From: a virus
Taxonomy: Duplodnaviria; Caudoviricetes
DNA length: 24,259 nucleotides
IMG/VR virus record: IMGVR_UViG_3300037048_000239
Location: 1-24,259 of that record
Direction: 5' to 3' (one strand)
In this document: piece by piece, positions 8,250 through 14,971 of the stretch
How positions within the stretch are numbered: the stretch's first letter is position 1
Layout: each line of letters opens with the position of its first letter
Made by a program: the position numbers and the translations under genes
The notes under the pieces: model-generated
What the model saw: only the letters and a program-made list of their open reading frames with translations
What the model was told of the DNA's origin: nothing
Databases searched by the model: none

Positions 8250-11200
8250 CAGATCTTCACCGCCAATGGATCGTTGATCGCAGCGGCTGCCGTTGTCCGG
8301 CCGAGGCTTTTCGACATGCCGGAGTTGAACGAAGACGTCACCGCGCCTTCGTTGTTGCGGACAAACTTCACGGTCTTGCCCTCGAGGAAGCGCTCAGTCG
8401 ACTCCCCGTCGGCCTGGATCGTCACATGGACAACCTGCTGCTGAGGCTGCTGCTGTGGGGTCCGGAGATTACCCAGGCCCGGCAGACTTGACGCATAACC
8501 GTATTGCTGGCCGTTCATGCTGAAGCCCGACTGGTAAAGCGAGCCACCCTGCTGGGTCATCCAGACGCCACGCGGCTTGTTGTCTGCGAGCCCGGCGTTT
8601 TGGCCCGTCGCCATGGCGTATTCAAACACCATGTCGCGCACCTGCGCCGACCGGATCGCTGCTTCGAGATTGCCGCCGAAACTCGATTTCGCCATCTCGA
8701 CCACCGACCGGGCGAAGCCTTTGTCCACGGTGACCTTATAGATATCGCGGATCTTATCGATCGTCTTCTGATCTGAACCCTTCATGAAGAGCCGCACGAA
8801 ACCGGCGGCCGCACCCGCCGCGGCGCCGATCGCCGCGCCCAGCGGGCCTCCGTATTTGAAACCGATCAGCGCGCCGCCCGCAGTGGTTTCCGCCAGGCCC
8901 GTCCAGCCGCCACGCCGAAGGCCGTCCATCGCGAGCATCCCGCCACCAAGTAGCGCCGCGTTCGAGCGGCCCAGAGCTGAGAGCTTCTGCGTCATGCTGG
9001 CCGCCTGCCCGGTCGTGGCGGCACCAGGCGCATACTGGACGCCCCCGCTGAAACCCAGGAACTCCTTCAGACCTGCCAGGCTGCCCATCCCACGTGATGC
9101 CATCGCCCCAGCAGACGCCTGTGTCGCCGGATTCAGCATGGAAACGCTGGCGGGCAGAAACGGCGGAGTCACCGCCGCGCCGGCGCTCCCGCCGAAGACA
9201 GGCGCCGCGCCGATGCCGAGCAAGCCGCCCAGTCCGCCCAGCATCCCTGCGCCGCCGGAGGTTGCCGGACGCAATGAGGCTGTCGTGCCCGTAAACATCT
9301 GCATCAGCATCGCCGCCACGCGCGAGGTGACCACATCCTTGATGGCGGTGAGCAGCGCCGTTTTAAGCGAATTCCCGATCGCCGACCAAACCGACTGCGA
9401 TTTCGTCAGTAGGGCATCAAAGACGCCCTCGGCCTGGCGCTTGAACGAGTCGAAGATCCCTCGGTTGTGGTCCCGGACCATCTCGGCGGTCCGGATGGCG
9501 GCGTTCTGGCGCGCGGCGTCGACGGCGGCCGAGGGTTCTTCCTGGTTCGCCCGCTTGATCTCGTCCCGCTGGGCGCTCAACTCCGCGATCCGTGCCCGGA
9601 TTTCCTCGGCCCTGTAGCCGAGCCGCACCATTGCCGCTTCCTCTTCGATGAGCATCGTCGAGGTTTCAAGCTCGAACATCCGCATCCGGATGCCGTGGAC
9701 CCGCTCGATGTGATCGATCTCAATTTGAGCCCGCTGCGCCTCGACGGCCGCCTTCTGCTCGATGGTCTGAGCATCCACAACCTCAAGCGCTCGAAGCCGG
9801 GCGTCGCGAGCAAGCGTCGAGCGCTGATCTTCAATACCCATCGTGCGGTCGAGGTGATCGAGGTTCCGGCGGGCGATCTCCTCGCCGTATTCGAGCCGCT
9901 TCTGATGGAGAGAGGCCTCGACGGCCAGCCGCCGCAGCGCAGCCTCTTGCTCGGCTTGAACGTGTTCTGCCAACTGCGCGCGGGTGTCGCGCTGGAACTT
10001 CTCCCGGAACGCCGCCCAGCGCAAGGACAACTCTTCGATCACGTTCTGCCAGGCGCGTTTGGTGAGTCCCGCTTGGTGCTCGACGCCCTTGTCGTCGGTG
10101 AACGTGGCCCATTTCTTCGCCTGATCGCCCACCTGGGCCATCTCACGGGCGAAGCCTGTCAGATTCCCACGCCTGGCATCGGCGACAGCTTGCGCGGATT
10201 CGCGCTCGGCCTGGATCTGGTGTTTTCCAATGTCCTTGGCAAGCGTCTCGGCCTCGGCCTTCCGGCGCCGCGCCTCCTCAGCATCGACTCCGGCCTGATT
10301 CAGGTCCCGCATCCGCTTTCGAAACTCGTCGTTGTCGAATGCGTCGAAGAACTCCTTCGCCCCCTGCTTGCCGCCGAACATCGCTACACGCACCTGATCG
10401 AGGCTGAAACCCATCTTCTTGAGATCCTCGATGGACTTGCCGGCGTTGATAGCTTCGTTGATGCGCTTCAGGTCGTCTGCGGCCCGCTGCATGGCCACAA
10501 ACTCCTCATTGGCCTCGAGGGTGCGTTGGTTCATCTCGTAGATGGCCGTTCCAGCCACCGCCGCCCCCACAGCAATCGCCGTGAACGGATTCCGGGTCAT
10601 GGCCAGGGTGAGAGCATCCACTGCGCGCTTGGCCCCCGCAATCCAGCCGATAAATTGCGCCACTGCCGCGCCGATCACCGCCGCCGCAATCGCCTTCGCA
10701 AACAGCCCGAGGGCGTCGGAGTTTCGGTTCACCCATTTGGCGAGATCAGTGAGGCCTTCGATCATCCGCCGCATTTCGGGCAGGAACTCCGCGCCGATCG
10801 CCGCCTTCGCCTCTTCGACATACCGGCTCAAAGAGCCCATCTGCTTGCCGACCGTGCCGAGAGAAGCCTCATACGCTCCGGCGATCTTCGGCCCCTCGGC
10901 CAACACGACATTGAGCGCGGTATTGCGCCGCTCGATCTCGGTCATATCCCGGCCCAGTCGCCGCCGAGCCTCAGAGAACGCACGCTCGAACTGAATGTTG
11001 ATGCCATAGGTGCGCAGCACTTCGATCTGCTGCGTAGTGATGCCGCTCATGATGCCCTGCAGGGCGGCGGAAGAATCCTGGCCGGCGACGACGGCTGCAT
11101 CCTGGGCCAGCCGCGCGAGGTCAGTGGCCTTCGACAGATCCAGCTGCGACGCGATCATCTTGTTGACGATGTCGCGCGAGGCCTGCGTGGTGATGCCCAG

Positions 11201-11557
11201 ATCCTTGATCCTGCTTACCAGCCGCTCGATCGAGCCCTCGTTGTACCCATTTGCTCGGGCGAGTTGCGCGTTCACGACGGCCAGGGTTTCGTTCCGCGCC
11301 GCCAGGCGGCTGGTCTCCTCAATCTGGGTTTTCACCCAGCCGACCACTCGCTCAAACGCCGAAGCCAGCACACCGGCGGCCGCGGCACCCTTGGCGACAG
11401 AGACGGTCAGCCCGTCGATGCCGGATGAGGCTCCGCGCGCGGCCTTCACTGCTGTGGCTTCCATCGACGACAGGCCGGCGTTGACGCTCTTGATCGAAGC
11501 GTTGGCCCGGTTGACGTCAACTTCAACGACGAGTTCGAGTTTGTTGTCAGCGGGCAT
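8249..11557 (-). CDS. Tail tape measure protein
   Basis: 1102 aa, Ala/Gly-rich helical and coiled-coil sequence with hydrophobic segments. N-terminus MPADNKLELVVEVD. Lies between the tail chaperones and the Dit-like gene. Confidence 0.92.
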   Translation of the reverse strand: MPADNKLELVVEVDVNRANASIKSVNAGLSSMEATAVKAARGASSGIDGLTVSVAKGAAAAGVLASAFERVVGWVKTQIEETSRLAARNETLAVVNAQLARANGYNEGSIERLVSRIKDLGITTQASRDIVNKMIASQLDLSKATDLARLAQDAAVVAGQDSSAALQGIMSGITTQQIEVLRTYGINIQFERAFSEARRRLGRDMTEIERRNTALNVVLAEGPKIAGAYEASLGTVGKQMGSLSRYVEEAKAAIGAEFLPEMRRMIEGLTDLAKWVNRNSDALGLFAKAIAAAVIGAAVAQFIGWIAGAKRAVDALTLAMTRNPFTAIAVGAAVAGTAIYEMNQRTLEANEEFVAMQRAADDLKRINEAINAGKSIEDLKKMGFSLDQVRVAMFGGKQGAKEFFDAFDNDEFRKRMRDLNQAGVDAEEARRRKAEAETLAKDIGKHQIQAERESAQAVADARRGNLTGFAREMAQVGDQAKKWATFTDDKGVEHQAGLTKRAWQNVIEELSLRWAAFREKFQRDTRAQLAEHVQAEQEAALRRLAVEASLHQKRLEYGEEIARRNLDHLDRTMGIEDQRSTLARDARLRALEVVDAQTIEQKAAVEAQRAQIEIDHIERVHGIRMRMFELETSTMLIEEEAAMVRLGYRAEEIRARIAELSAQRDEIKRANQEEPSAAVDAARQNAAIRTAEMVRDHNRGIFDSFKRQAEGVFDALLTKSQSVWSAIGNSLKTALLTAIKDVVTSRVAAMLMQMFTGTTASLRPATSGGAGMLGGLGGLLGIGAAPVFGGSAGAAVTPPFLPASVSMLNPATQASAGAMASRGMGSLAGLKEFLGFSGGVQYAPGAATTGQAASMTQKLSALGRSNAALLGGGMLAMDGLRRGGWTGLAETTAGGALIGFKYGGPLGAAIGAAAGAAAGFVRLFMKGSDQKTIDKIRDIYKVTVDKGFARSVVEMAKSSFGGNLEAAIRSAQVRDMVFEYAMATGQNAGLADNKPRGVWMTQQGGSLYQSGFSMNGQQYGYASSLPGLGNLRTPQQQPQQQVVHVTIQADGESTERFLEGKTVKFVRNNEGAVTSSFNSGMSKSLGRTTAAAAINDPLAVKI

Positions 11558-11648
11558 TCAGATGGGGCCAAAGTAGCGTGAGGACTCAAGGAAGAAGCCA
11601 AAGCCGCGCCCTGTTCTCGTAGGGTTTATCAGTCTACCCGCTGGCTTT

Positions 11649-11657
11649 TGGTAACGT
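11649..11657 (+). promoter_or_regulatory. Possible extended -10 promoter element (TGgTAACGT) for the MBL gene
   Basis: TGn plus a 4/6 match to TATAAT with the key T, A and final T kept, about 80 nt upstream of ATG 11740. No convincing -35. Confidence 0.2.
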
Positions 11658-11739
11658 GAGGGTGGCTACAGCCTCTCCGCGGCCATCGGGGGGCAATAAC
11701 AGCTTCCTGCTCCGGGCCGCGCGGGATGAGAACAGTGCG

Positions 11740-12978
11740 ATGAGGGTCTGCATACACCGCGGAACGAAGGAGATCGGGGGCACCTGCGTTGAGATTGAAT
11801 CGAGGAGCGCACGCATCGTCTTGGATGTCGGATTGCCGTTAGATGCCGCTACTCCGGATGAGGTGCCGCTGCATTCAGTTCCCGGTTTCGAAAAACCAGA
11901 TGCGTCGCTGCTTGGTGTTGTTATTTCGCACCCACACCAAGATCACTACGGGCTCGCATACCGCTTGCCGGATCAGACGCGGTTTCTCATCGGCAAAGCC
12001 GCCCAGTCCATTTTGGCGGCAGCGGACTTGTTTACACCAGCCGGGGCCACATTCGAGAATGTAATTTATCTGGAGGACCGGAAGCCCATCGTGCTCGGTC
12101 CATTCACTATTCTTCCCTTCCTCGTGGATCACTCCGCGTACGACTCTTATGCGTTGCTGGTTGAAGCAGATGGCAAGCGACTTTTCTATTCGGGTGACCT
12201 GCGGGCTCACGGTCGCAAAGGAGCGCTCTTCGAAAAACTGGTTAGACAACCTCCCGACCGGGTGGATGTACTGCTGATGGAGGGGACAACCGTTGGTCGA
12301 GACGACCAGGAGTTCCCCTCAGAGACTGCCCTGGAACAACGTTTCGTTGAGTTGTTTCAGCAGACGGAGGGGATGCCACTGGTTTGGTGTTCCGGCCAGA
12401 ACATCGACAGGCTCGTGACCATATTCCGGGCGTGTGTCAATGCAGGACGGCAGTTCATCATCGACATGTACACCGCGCATGTCTTGAGGGCGACCGACAA
12501 CGAACGGCTGCCACAGGCCGGTTGGGATCACATCAAAGTATTTCTACCTGGCACGCAACGACGGCAGATCGTCCGGCGCGGCGAGTTCGCCATCGCCAAC
12601 AGCTACCGACCTTGGCGTATCTTCCCCGAACAGCTTGCTCAAGCCGCGGCAACATCCGTAATGCTGTTCAGGCCGAGCATGATCAATGACGTCGAGCAAG
12701 CCTCCTGCCTGCCAGGGGCCAGGCTCATCTTCTCCCTCTGGTCAGGCTACTTGAAAGATCCCACCAAAAAGCCATTTCTTGAATGGCTCCATCGGAACGG
12801 TATTCCTCTGAGCGAGTGCCACACGTCAGGACACGCTTCGGTTGAGGACTTGAGGAGTCTGCGGCGGGCCTTTCCAAACGCCGCAGTAGTGCCCGTTCAT
12901 ACCGCCAACGCGGATCGCTTCGAGCAACTGTTTGGGAATGTGGAGCGCCGGAATGATGGTGAGTGGTGGACTGTCTGA
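11740..12978 (+). CDS. MBL-fold metallo-hydrolase, beta-CASP/RNase J-like nuclease
   Basis: 412 aa from ATG 11740 (MRVCIHRGTKEIGGTC). Motifs LDVG, HPHQDH, DHS and SGD, then beta-CASP motifs A (LLMEGT), B (HTSGH) and C (PVH). Lacks the C-terminal domain of housekeeping RNase J. Confidence 0.9.
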   Translation: MRVCIHRGTKEIGGTCVEIESRSARIVLDVGLPLDAATPDEVPLHSVPGFEKPDASLLGVVISHPHQDHYGLAYRLPDQTRFLIGKAAQSILAAADLFTPAGATFENVIYLEDRKPIVLGPFTILPFLVDHSAYDSYALLVEADGKRLFYSGDLRAHGRKGALFEKLVRQPPDRVDVLLMEGTTVGRDDQEFPSETALEQRFVELFQQTEGMPLVWCSGQNIDRLVTIFRACVNAGRQFIIDMYTAHVLRATDNERLPQAGWDHIKVFLPGTQRRQIVRRGEFAIANSYRPWRIFPEQLAQAAATSVMLFRPSMINDVEQASCLPGARLIFSLWSGYLKDPTKKPFLEWLHRNGIPLSECHTSGHASVEDLRSLRRAFPNAAVVPVHTANADRFEQLFGNVERRNDGEWWTV

Positions 12979-13008
12979 AATCCAGCGAGCCATCTCGCCT
13001 CTCTCCAA

Positions 13009-13830
13009 CTACTGCCCCGAATCTGACCGGAGGTCAAGTACCCGTGCACCGGTTATTGTCGGCAAGCCCACATCGTTCCAGATGCCCTCAACAGCAACAA
13101 AATGGATGTCGAACCATCGTCCCAGAGCATCGACCAGTTGCCAGAAGGGCGGCCAAGCCTCGGCGGGAAAAGCTCCAGCCTTGGTTGTGGGCCACCGTCC
13201 CAGAGATCTTGACCAGTATTCCTCCGGCGCGACACCGATCAAAGTTAACCTGTCCAAGCTTTCGGGAAACTGTGAGGACTGCGCGCCACCCGAACCCAGC
13301 GCTCTGGCCCAATGGTCCTTGAGTGCTGGCCAGGCCTTTCGGATTGCGAATCCGTATGCGGCTACTTCCACCAACATCCGAAGGGGACTTTCGTTGGTCT
13401 TGCGTCTCTTCAGTTCGTTTGGCACCGGGAGCAGGTCCGTCCCGATGCCGAGAAGGTCGACGGCGCCCCAGCGACTATTTGCACGAGAGGCCCGCAGAGG
13501 ATATTGGTAGGTCTGAATGTGCTTACAGACCGGAGTATATTCGCTCGAACTTCCGGGTCCCCACTTCCCGTGCATTGCCCGTTCCCACTTATCCTCCTCA
13601 TGTGTCAGAGGGGGGTCCGTCTTGCGATCTAAGCAGAAGTCCGTCTTGCGATGCGGGGCCTTGTCGATTGTATTTTCGACAAGTTCATCGAGGTTCAACA
13701 GAATGTCCTCTATCTGTTGCTTCGCATACTGGAGTTGGAAGCTGAACGAACCGCGCCCCTCTCCCGGTTTGGAAATTTCCTGCAGCCCCAACTTGAGGAT
13801 GGGATCAATCTTGCGAATATTGCTCGGCAT
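13009..13830 (-). CDS. Putative PD-(D/E)xK-superfamily nuclease
   Basis: 273 aa from ATG 13830 with GGAGG upstream; the ORF-track start at 14022 overlaps gpGT and is unlikely. Motif order EEDKWE...YQYPL...GAVDLLG...PNELK...PLRMLVEVAAY fits E...D...ExK plus a (Q/E)xxxY helix. Confidence 0.65.
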   Translation of the reverse strand: MPSNIRKIDPILKLGLQEISKPGEGRGSFSFQLQYAKQQIEDILLNLDELVENTIDKAPHRKTDFCLDRKTDPPLTHEEDKWERAMHGKWGPGSSSEYTPVCKHIQTYQYPLRASRANSRWGAVDLLGIGTDLLPVPNELKRRKTNESPLRMLVEVAAYGFAIRKAWPALKDHWARALGSGGAQSSQFPESLDRLTLIGVAPEEYWSRSLGRWPTTKAGAFPAEAWPPFWQLVDALGRWFDIHFVAVEGIWNDVGLPTITGARVLDLRSDSGQ

Positions 13831-13921
13831 CGATGCATCGCCTCCGTGAACAGACGGCTCAGGCCAAGTACTTGAATAGCAGAAGTGGTGCATCCAGGTA
13901 CGTGCAGAAACGCCGGCCACA

Positions 13922-13985
13922 GGAAAGAAGACCGCACGCGGCGACTTGGGTAGCCCACCCTTCAAGGTCAGGTCGCGCGGCGATC
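13922..13985 (-). terminator. Possible structured RNA or terminator-like hairpin after the gpGT stop
   Basis: Minus-strand GATCGCCGCGCGAC...GTCGCCGCGTGCGGTC can form about 14 bp with two single-base bulges, followed by TTCTTTCC. Confidence 0.3.
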
Positions 13986-13990
13986 CGCTA

Positions 13991-14317
13991 TCACTCTGGA
14001 TTCTCGCGGCCCAGTCGATCACGCTCTCCCTCGAGAGTCAGCATCGCAGCAAACTCATCCGCGCCAATCTCATCGAGGCCAATCCGGATGCCCAGCTTCA
14101 ACGCACCCTGAAGTTCAACCGCGCGCCTCAGCATCAGCCCAGCTTCGGTAGACTGCGCGGCATCGAGTCGGTCCAGCGGGCAGTGGTCACATCGCCCTCC
14201 GTCGTCTGGCGCATCGTGGCAAAGTCCAGGATCGCAGAGTTCATCCCGGCGCAGTGACCAGTGAATCAGAAATCGCAGGGAGGGCTGATCGGGCCACTCC
14301 CCGCTCGTCAGTTTGGG
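13991..14317 (-). CDS. Tail assembly chaperone gpGT extension (T frame), reached by a -1 frameshift
   Basis: Open -1 frame after the slippery site: PKLTSGEWPDQPSLRFLIHWSLRRDELCDPGLC...CDHCPLDRLD...RENPE. No in-frame ATG near its 5' end. Confidence 0.8.
   Translation of the reverse strand, partial: PKLTSGEWPDQPSLRFLIHWSLRRDELCDPGLCHDAPDDGGRCDHCPLDRLDAAQSTEAGLMLRRAVELQGALKLGIRIGLDEIGADEFAAMLTLEGERDRLGRENPE
14274..14317 (-). promoter_or_regulatory. Programmed -1 ribosomal frameshift signal: slippery heptamer plus stimulatory hairpin
   Basis: C CCA AAC (14317-14311) is a perfect X XXY YYZ directly before the TGA. A 6-nt spacer follows, then stem GCGGGGAG-T-GGC / GCC-CTCCCTGC. Confidence 0.85.
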
Positions 14318-14928
14318 TCCACGGTCTCCTGGAACGAAGCTTCGAGGGCATCGATGGCCGCCTTCACCGCCACGGCCTGGTGGATGATCGGCACATCGCC
14401 GGCGTAGCCATCGGCGGCCAGCACCAACCGCTTGTACAGGGCGCCCGCCGGTGCGAGGTTGATGATCAATTCCTGGCGGTTGTAGGGCAGGTCGAGCACC
14501 CGGGCGAAGCCGCGGCGGTATTCGAAGACATCCTTCGCCGAGGGCATGCGCAGGGAGTGCGTAACTGTGCCTCCGAGCACCCGGAGCGTCACTTCGAAGC
14601 CTTCGCCCACCTGGGTCACGTCGTCGACTTCGGCCTGACCCAACTGCTCGATGACGCGGCTGGCCTCGAAGGGGTCTACCTCGGGGGCATCCGGCTCCGG
14701 CACGCGGATCTTGGCCAGCAATGCCGCGTCGGCGTCCTCGGAGTTGGGAATGGTGGTTTCGGAGATCCCGCGCCCCAGTTGTTTCACGATCACCTTGCGG
14801 CGGCGCTGGCGCTCGATCCACTCCTCGTTGGTCGGGAAGCGCACGCGGACGGTCTTCACGCCTGCGGGCGTCCGTAGGTTCAGCGCGACGGGGCGCGCAG
14901 CATCAAATACGCTCTGAGTCTGTTCCAT
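14308..14928 (-). CDS. Tail assembly chaperone (gpG-like)
   Basis: 206 aa from ATG 14928 (MEQTQSVF) with GAGGAG upstream. Follows the tail tube and ends in a slippery heptamer. Confidence 0.8.
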   Translation of the reverse strand: MEQTQSVFDAARPVALNLRTPAGVKTVRVRFPTNEEWIERQRRRKVIVKQLGRGISETTIPNSEDADAALLAKIRVPEPDAPEVDPFEASRVIEQLGQAEVDDVTQVGEGFEVTLRVLGGTVTHSLRMPSAKDVFEYRRGFARVLDLPYNRQELIINLAPAGALYKRLVLAADGYAGDVPIIHQAVAVKAAIDALEASFQETVDPN

Positions 14929-14947
14929 GAAGAAGTCTCCTCTGATG

Positions 14948-14971
14948 ACTTCAGGTAAATATTCCTGAAGT
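14948..14971. repeat. Intergenic inverted repeat between the tail tube and chaperone genes
   Basis: ACTTCAGG-taaatatt-CCTGAAGT: perfect 8-bp arms with an 8-nt AT loop. Confidence 0.7.

Follow-up and report, generated by a model that had tools for sequence, protein, structure and literature searches.

We analysed a stretch of 24,259 nucleotides (nt) of DNA, hereafter the window, which is the whole of the virus record IMGVR_UViG_3300037048_000239 (Caudoviricetes) and which carries on its minus strand a lambda-like head and tail operon, with genes for the terminases, portal, protease, decoration, major capsid, head closure, tail tube, chaperone, tape measure and tail tip proteins. Two convergent genes, which we call gene A and gene B, lie inside the interval between the end of the tail assembly chaperone extension G-T (13991) and the start of the tape measure gene (11557). 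Gene A encodes a beta-CASP protein and gene B a predicted PD-(D/E)xK protein. The A-B pair is a real, unnamed and widespread module, which belongs to a class with an exchangeable partner gene and is not unique to this phage; what is new is the gene B family, the setting in a phage tail operon and the domain swap described below. A sequence-only reading of the same DNA had noticed two convergent non-structural genes 30 bp apart at the junction of chaperone and tape measure, with these two folds and a codon style of their own, and each of these observations holds. The coordinates of the features are compiled in Table 1.

Table 1. Features of the insert and of its flanks, in positions of the window (aa, amino acids; ORF, open reading frame).
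Feature	Position	Strand	Basis or remark
Whole insert, from chaperone G-T to tape measure	11558..13990		2,433 bp, GC content 0.57
Shared mobile unit including both 5' leaders	11632..13887		blastn against loci L085, L086, L139, L009 and L087; 77-84% DNA identity over ~2.25 kb
Gene A, beta-CASP/RNase J-like, 412 aa	11740..12978	+	ORF, family and structure matches, motifs
Gene B, unclassified protein of predicted PD-(D/E)xK fold, 273 aa, NucS-like core	13009..13830	- (late-operon strand)	Motifs E79, D125, E139, K141, with E/Q155 and Y159
Gap between the stop codons of gene A and gene B, 30 bp	12979..13008		No clear intrinsic terminator
Upstream flank: tail assembly chaperone G and G-T extension	13991..14952	-	CCCAAAC at 14317-14311 ahead of the G stop
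Downstream flank: tape measure protein, 1102 aa	8249..11557	-	phrog_28, weak match
Conserved TGG-TAAnnT block, ~85 nt upstream of gene A	11649..11657	+	In 6/8 aligned leaders; may be an extended -10 promoter element, which it resembles
Conserved gene B leader: TGCTATTCAAGTA(C/T)TTGG-like block and GGAGG ribosome-binding site	13841..13886	-	Six leaders aligned; GGAGG at 13845-13841

The composition of the two genes differs from that of nine structural genes: the GC content at third codon positions (GC3) is 0.646 in gene A and 0.634 in gene B versus 0.736-0.867, and codon adaptation is 0.49 and 0.48, respectively, versus 0.61-0.76. Both genes are under purifying selection, with ratios of nonsynonymous to synonymous substitution rates (dN/dS) of 0.11-0.17 for gene A and 0.24-0.27 for gene B in three pairwise comparisons.

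Gene A matches PF12706 (Lactamase_B_2), and its product has motifs 1 to 4 of the metallo-beta-lactamase (MBL) superfamily (D29; H64, H66, D68 and H69; H131; D153) together with motifs A, B and C of the beta-CASP family (E181, H365 and H387), all of them invariant in 53 aligned homologues. The structural model has a mean predicted local distance difference test score (pLDDT) of 91 and full-length fold matches, of which EF2904 of Enterococcus faecalis V583 (PDB 2az4) is the best, followed by RNase J and also including TTHA0252 and CPSF73. Gene A is a member of the beta-CASP family of the MBL superfamily with complete active-site motifs. EF2904, a beta-CASP protein of unknown function, also ranks first for gene A among PDB sequences (E 3e-13), and its fold match has a Foldseek E of 1.8e-26 and a TM score of 0.77; both proteins belong to the same length class and lack the C-terminal domain of RNase J, and their identity is ~20%. 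According to excerpts of PMC3095777, motif C holds His in RNA-acting beta-CASP members and Val in DNA-acting ones. Because gene A, like the RNase J and CPSF73-type enzymes, with which it shares all MBL and beta-CASP motifs, has His at this place, motif C points to RNA as the substrate, and ribonuclease activity is predicted from this motif only. Some His-type beta-CASP enzymes also cut single-stranded DNA. A housekeeping RNase J was ruled out, since the RNase J model TIGR00649 scores 56 bits against a cut-off of 400 and the protein, at 412 aa, lacks the C-terminal domain; whereas RNase J has about 550 aa, gene A is ~140 aa shorter, patchy in its distribution, mobile and paired with a PD-(D/E)xK gene. 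A longer GTG start at 11656 was rejected, as homologues align from the ATG at 11740. The subfamily of gene A has many members: of 8,000 candidates that were scored, 6,799 passed, other MBL proteins included, and the best 120 are 63-92% identical. A plasmid search added 11 homologues.

Gene B belongs to a family without a match in Pfam, PHROGs, NCBIfam or PADLOC, with 93 close relatives and 478 representatives at 50% clustering. All 91 diverse homologues that were compared share E79, D125, E139 and K141 and have either E or Q at position 155; Y159 is present in 90 of them, and seven of the 91 match PF12705. In the model (pLDDT 86), a helix (78-90), strands (102-107, 126-130 and 135-140), a second helix (149-177) and a further strand (195-202) could be recognised, which make up an alpha-beta-beta-beta-alpha-beta core; its best structural match is NucS (Z 7.3, root-mean-square deviation 3.0 over 108 residues), and the next ones, at Z 5-6, are XisH, HamA, Can2, PaqCI, SduA and FokI. 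Each Z is modest, and we assign the modelled protein to the PD-(D/E)xK superfamily because the class of structural matches is uniform and agrees with the E..D..ExK motif. A search of PDB sequences with the gene B profile gave only a motif-level match to NucS (E 0.08), and the nearest named Atlas cluster is NucS_C, at 13%. The possibility that gene B is NucS/EndoMS proper was discarded, given that it has no Pfam match and that only the nuclease domain aligns (126-233 of 2vld with the range 78-250 of gene B). A longer GTG frame, from 14022, is unused by homologues and was likewise set aside. The plasmid search yielded no gene B homologue. In fifteen loci (L013-L016, L021, L022, L028-L033 and L035-L037; for example, L014:5458-5997), a domain of ~180 aa without a match in Pfam, PADLOC or the Atlas is fused ahead of the gene B homologue.

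The two genes share more than their position in this operon. The stretch listed in Table 1 as the shared mobile unit, which includes ~110 nt upstream of gene A and ~55 nt upstream of gene B, aligns to five loci free of tail genes, and in tail-free relatives the two genes again converge, with 18-47 bp between them. Gene A and gene B thus arrived together as one unit, whose convergent layout is older than its entry into the phage. The two conserved leader blocks are putative promoters. In a quick version of the gene A tree, which was used for well-supported clades only, the gene A of the window falls in a clade of 14 rows (Shimodaira-Hasegawa-like approximate likelihood ratio support, 99) in which the named members belong to the Acidobacteriota. 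The same junction, at 90% DNA identity, is found on a contig (L098) from an uncultured Candidatus Solibacter genome, so that the host of the phage is likely to belong to the Acidobacteriota, the basis for this being one binned contig of 4.7 kb.

The association between the two genes was evaluated in several sets of loci. A gene A match, fragments included, is present in 61 of the 80 metagenome loci that were found with gene B; when these are collapsed at 90% identity, 24 of 37 gene B groups have gene A and six are too short to judge. Among 401 Acidobacteriota genomes, the gene A subfamily occurs in eight (E<=1e-40) and the gene B family in six (E<1e-17), and in four genomes both lie within 1.5 kb of each other (three of five without the seed genome, P=3e-5); a further 19 Acidobacteriota genomes have weak, motif-level gene B matches, none of them with gene A within 1.5 kb. 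The layout varies with distance: close relatives are convergent, whereas distant ones (30-35% identity in gene B) are mostly arranged as an operon with gene A ahead of gene B, and two have the reverse order. The identities of the two proteins co-vary (Spearman 0.76, over 231 non-independent pairs). Co-occurrence, co-divergence and the fusions described next support, at the level of comparative sequence analysis, gene A and gene B as a real functional pair, in line with the two-component arrangement that the sequence-only reading had proposed.

Beyond the close relatives, the class extends from the Acidobacteriota to the Proteobacteria and Desulfobacterota, and the partner of gene A changes. 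Gene A is rarely found without a partner; of 72 genome loci found with it, 15 have a neighbour of the gene B family and most of the others have a different unannotated gene in that place. Among the downstream neighbours and fused tails of gene A that have 200-480 aa, 42 of 59 contain a D..ExK motif, compared with 27 of 307 other genes in this size range. These D..ExK partners comprise at least eight families, some with profile similarity to gene B, which are interleaved on the gene A tree. In five of the 72 loci, from Desulfobacterota and other deltaproteobacteria, gene A is fused to its D..ExK partner; the fusion proteins, of 650-760 aa, in which the beta-CASP part is joined to a different PD-(D/E)xK domain, are found in L114, L117, L118, L119 and L123 (for example, L114:8001-10259). 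On plasmids of Burkholderia sp. YI23, Rhizobium phaseoli, Ochrobactrum and Cereibacter, a gene A homologue (38-44%) adjoins a hypothetical protein with a motif of D..ExK type, and two other gene A-bearing plasmids that were examined have no intact neighbour of this type. Partners differ even between close relatives: L111 and L091, whose gene A shares 84% DNA identity, have different ones, and L088 is 89-92% identical to L014 and L035 over gene A, the partner leader and the first ~237 partner codons, while ~800 bp between matching flanks, which hold the catalytic motif, are unrelated. The catalytic domain of the partner has therefore been exchanged between these relatives. The ~180-aa N-terminal domain mentioned above also precedes the swapped partner in L088. 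More distant gene A homologues adjoin calcineurin-like phosphoesterases, WYL regulators, or agmatine-deiminase-like or DnaE-like genes (L148, L154, L281, L282, L099, L110, L150 and L151), and these loci perhaps represent other subtypes.

To describe the site itself, we took viral contigs that encode a related tail tube, 174 in all, and used the best 80, of which 66 hold both flanks; the contigs are partly redundant. The junction is empty in 28 of the 66, where it is closed so that the G-T stop overlaps the tape measure start, and it is occupied in the other 38 by 21 types of insert. The chaperone/tape measure junction is a cargo hotspot, in agreement with the accessory locus suggested by the sequence-only reading, and toxin-antitoxin-like pairs are among its cargo. 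The inserts include HicB-like genes, pairs of Gp49 (HigB-like) and helix-turn-helix genes, DUF6883-DUF4926 pairs and several unannotated genes; the A-B pair is found in two of the 66 contigs, one of which is a copy of this phage. Absence from close relatives and foreign composition are features of a moron, and the A-B insert has both. The unannotated genes, at L164:10191-11816 (541 aa), L235:10195-12096 (633 aa), L182:5071-5679 (202 aa), L172:10180-10761 (193 aa) and L170:10038-10607 (189 aa), have no Pfam match, three of them have no PADLOC match either, and all are candidates for further defence genes. In a distant phage (tail tube 42-44%), the same chaperone junction contains, on the opposite strand, a gene B homologue of 48% identity (L043:243-1055 and L044:797-1609), and these short contigs contain no gene A; this is a second, independent capture of the gene B family at a tail junction.

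Other features of the locus concern its flanks and its expression. A slippery heptamer, CCCAAAC, lies directly before the stop of chaperone G, and the -1 frame continues to 13991. The heptamer is present in 72 of 73 relatives, and in 14 of the 73 no in-frame (frame 0) stop follows it; from these data we infer a frameshift at CCCAAAC that would produce G-T. No convincing repeats or attachment-like sites were found around the insert, and a promoter and terminator scan of the insert gave no clear terminator and nothing at the expected places. The inserts of L211, L212 and L222 (about 9970-13550) are flanked by a duplicated 5' end of the tape measure gene, which suggests that cargo may enter through recombination at the tape measure start. 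As a separate observation, one groundwater metatranscriptome contains three contigs of 99% identity or more in gene A (11687-11909, 12360-12510 and 12612-12762), at a depth of 3-4, and none of this identity in gene B or in ~2.5 kb of flanking tail genes; because DNA carry-over is possible and the comparison is uncontrolled beyond that stretch, we do not count this as evidence.

To examine the genomic context of the pair, we scanned the 145 nearest of 195 non-redundant neighbours in 34 loci. Defence systems near the pair include a cyclic-oligonucleotide-based anti-phage signalling system (CBASS, L062), a type I restriction-modification (RM) system with AbiJ (L106), a type IIG RM system (L060) and a methylase (L016). 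Other neighbours related to conflict or mobility are WYL proteins (L064 and L132), HerA (L079), integrases (L074 and L139) and a plasmid-type single-stranded DNA-binding protein with AEP-TOTE (L086); caspase, Fic, PARG and PLD domains were also found. The gene A homologue of the Rhizobium plasmid adjoins an RM cluster of Eco57I type. Neither gene A nor gene B has a match in PADLOC-DB 2.0.0 at E<=0.1, and 30 relatives gave only short, motif-level matches, four to PDC-S11 and one to LmuA. The literature searched, which mostly did not extend to subscription papers and the supplementary tables of large prediction screens, contains no description of the pair, in agreement with the sequence-only reading, which recognised no named system in it; excerpts of PMC12799240, PMC11090510 and 10.64898/2026.10.19.760177 describe other MBL or NucS-like effectors.

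The comparison with known systems delimits what the pair could be. Gene B shares the E..D..ExK and E/Q-x3-Y motif with NucS/EndoMS, XisH, Shedu SduA, Hachiman HamA, Can2 and type II and type IV restriction enzymes; in contrast to these nucleases, of which the core alone aligns (Z 5-7), it has no NucS N-terminal domain, CARF domain, helicase partner or methyltransferase. No cognate methyltransferase is encoded in the insert, and methylase domains near a few of the 34 loci are not conserved, so type II restriction-modification was ruled out. The lack of a methylase is compatible with type IV (modification-dependent) restriction, and no reader domain was recognised in gene B. Cas14 of the type VII CRISPR systems is a beta-CASP defence effector of about 610 aa that is recruited by Cascade. 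Its model, NF045584, matches gene A weakly (22 versus 800 bits), and type VII CRISPR-Cas was ruled out, as the locus has no cas genes or array and its flanks are tail genes. The MBL-fold nuclease is a recurrent antiviral module, found with a protease in Hachiman, AVAST and other systems (excerpts of PMC12799240). The enzymes described there are similar to ComEC-type (DNA-uptake) proteins and have a trypsin-like protease as partner, whereas gene A is a beta-CASP protein; those excerpts mention neither beta-CASP nor RNase J.

As for the setting, HK97 gp15 is a moron located between tail genes of a late operon. Tab of Pseudomonas phage JBD26 (Tab/anti-Tab) is a moron that lies antisense within a late operon, has a promoter of its own and defends the lysogen (excerpts of PMC10884400). 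Like Tab and anti-Tab, gene A and gene B are accessory genes inside a morphogenetic operon, one of them antisense and the other on the late strand. The difference is that Tab is a small assembly inhibitor, while gene A and gene B are predicted nucleases whose convergent layout is older than their entry into the phage.

On balance, we consider it probable that the A-B pair is a two-gene nuclease unit carried as phage cargo at a tail hotspot and shared with Acidobacteriota chromosomes and mobile elements, which likely acts against phages or plasmids, with gene B as a variable DNA cutter and gene A as a nuclease that acts downstream. Taken separately, a defence role of the unit is also fairly probable. 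The division of labour, in which gene B is the variable part that cuts DNA and gene A the conserved nuclease that follows it, is a tentative and less probable proposal.

Several results weigh against this interpretation. Enrichment near defence islands is modest: relative to a control of 120 genes in 16 arbitrary stretches, all of them from Acidobacteriota and classified into defence categories that we set ourselves, defence or conflict genes make up 19 of 145 neighbours versus 3 of 120 (P=0.0015, although the genes are not independent), while per locus the difference is not significant (13 of 34 versus 2 of 16, P=0.10). The proximity to defence islands that the sequence-only reading proposed to measure is therefore seen when genes are counted and not when loci are, and with a strict definition (RM, CBASS or abortive infection) the enrichment is gone (4 of 34 loci versus 1 of 16). 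Many pair loci lie among housekeeping genes (L020, L030, L037, L071 and L080). The pair is not obligate, as seven of the 37 gene B groups have no gene A despite more than 1 kb on both sides, and the best Z of gene B, 7.3, is in the range of common arrangements. The hotspot also takes non-defence cargo, namely an outer-membrane barrel, M48 and M15 peptidases and a transposase (insertion sequence). No gene A homologue was found in 50,697 cultured-phage records. The window contains no integrase or repressor that would point to a temperate phage, and a consensus promoter scan detected nothing upstream of gene A or gene B.

Four other explanations were weighed against this evidence. A toxin-antitoxin or addiction module, in which one of the nucleases would be a toxin and the second would either neutralise it or break down its transcript, thereby stabilising the prophage or mobile element and leaving defence as a secondary effect, is unlikely. 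It would agree with most of the recognisable hotspot cargo, which is toxin-antitoxin-like, with the scarcity of gene A without a partner, and with convergent genes whose short gap and lack of a clear terminator would produce overlapping antisense 3' ends. However, the catalytic motifs of both genes are complete and both genes are under purifying selection, gene B stands without gene A in the seven groups mentioned above, distant relatives have a co-directional layout, and one conserved gene A accompanies many unrelated catalytic domains, some of them fused, unlike a cognate antitoxin. We also regard as quite unlikely a mobile pair for DNA repair or recombination, in which mismatched or branched DNA would be cut by a NucS/EndoMS-like protein and the ends resected by a beta-CASP protein of SNM1 type. 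The His at motif C, which is of RNA type rather than the Val of DNA-acting members (excerpts of PMC3095777), does not fit such a pair, nor does the missing NucS N-terminal domain; the patchy presence in eight and six of 401 genomes and the repeated swaps of the catalytic domain would be hard to explain. What speaks for it is that NucS is the best fold match of gene B, with a motif-level sequence match and NucS_C as its nearest cluster, and that some distant gene A homologues (L099, L110, L150 and L151) adjoin DnaE-like genes.

A lytic function on the side of the phage, in which the nucleases would break down DNA or RNA of the host or act against its defences, is improbable, even though gene B lies on the late-operon strand, where read-through is possible, and a gene B homologue occupies this junction in a distant phage. 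The homologous loci are almost all cellular, with only five viral loci of gene A, two of which are this phage and its 90% relative; gene A is antisense to the late operon, and the site is empty in many relatives. The last alternative, two unrelated genes acquired independently and without a shared function, had been left open in the sequence-only reading given the convergent layout, and gene B alone in some loci and the many kinds of cargo at the site could also be read in its favour. It is contradicted by the finding of the convergent 2.25-kb unit, with both leaders and gaps of 18-47 bp, outside tail operons, and by the co-varying identities and the fusions within the class; we rejected it as highly improbable.

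If the A-B pair is a defensive nuclease unit, as we favour, its mode of action might be as follows. With a separate leader for each gene, both could be expressed from a silent prophage, and, as part of the phage, the unit would function as a moron, like the antisense moron Tab. Because no cognate methyltransferase is conserved, gene B would recognise foreign DNA by its modification or structure, in a type IV-like or NucS-like manner, or would be kept off until infection. A swap of its catalytic part would change recognition, as in other arms-race loci. Next, gene A would either attack the 5' ends of the nucleic acid that has been cut and degrade it from there, or stall the infected cell through the destruction of RNA. 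In the lytic cycle of the phage, gene A would be crossed in antisense by the late transcript, which might, speculatively, silence it. In a broader and still doubtful extension of this model, the class would be a widespread immune system with a constant beta-CASP platform of EF2904 type, whose PD-(D/E)xK domain would be exchanged in frame through recombination of the conserved flanks on its two sides; an RNase-like effector would thus be coupled to changing DNA specificities, and phages would deploy it from the tail hotspot.

The likely host of the phage is uncultured, and the class can be tested with the plasmid pairs of cultured Burkholderia, Rhizobium, Ochrobactrum and Cereibacter. The hotspot itself offers a ready list of candidates, with several unannotated inserts. 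If our interpretation is true, it would provide a first function for the EF2904 family, until now an orphan family of structural genomics. If the unit is defensive, the class would be a source of new PD-(D/E)xK specificities and would represent a broad two-nuclease system, with thousands of clusters similar to gene A and at least eight partner families, that current detectors have missed.

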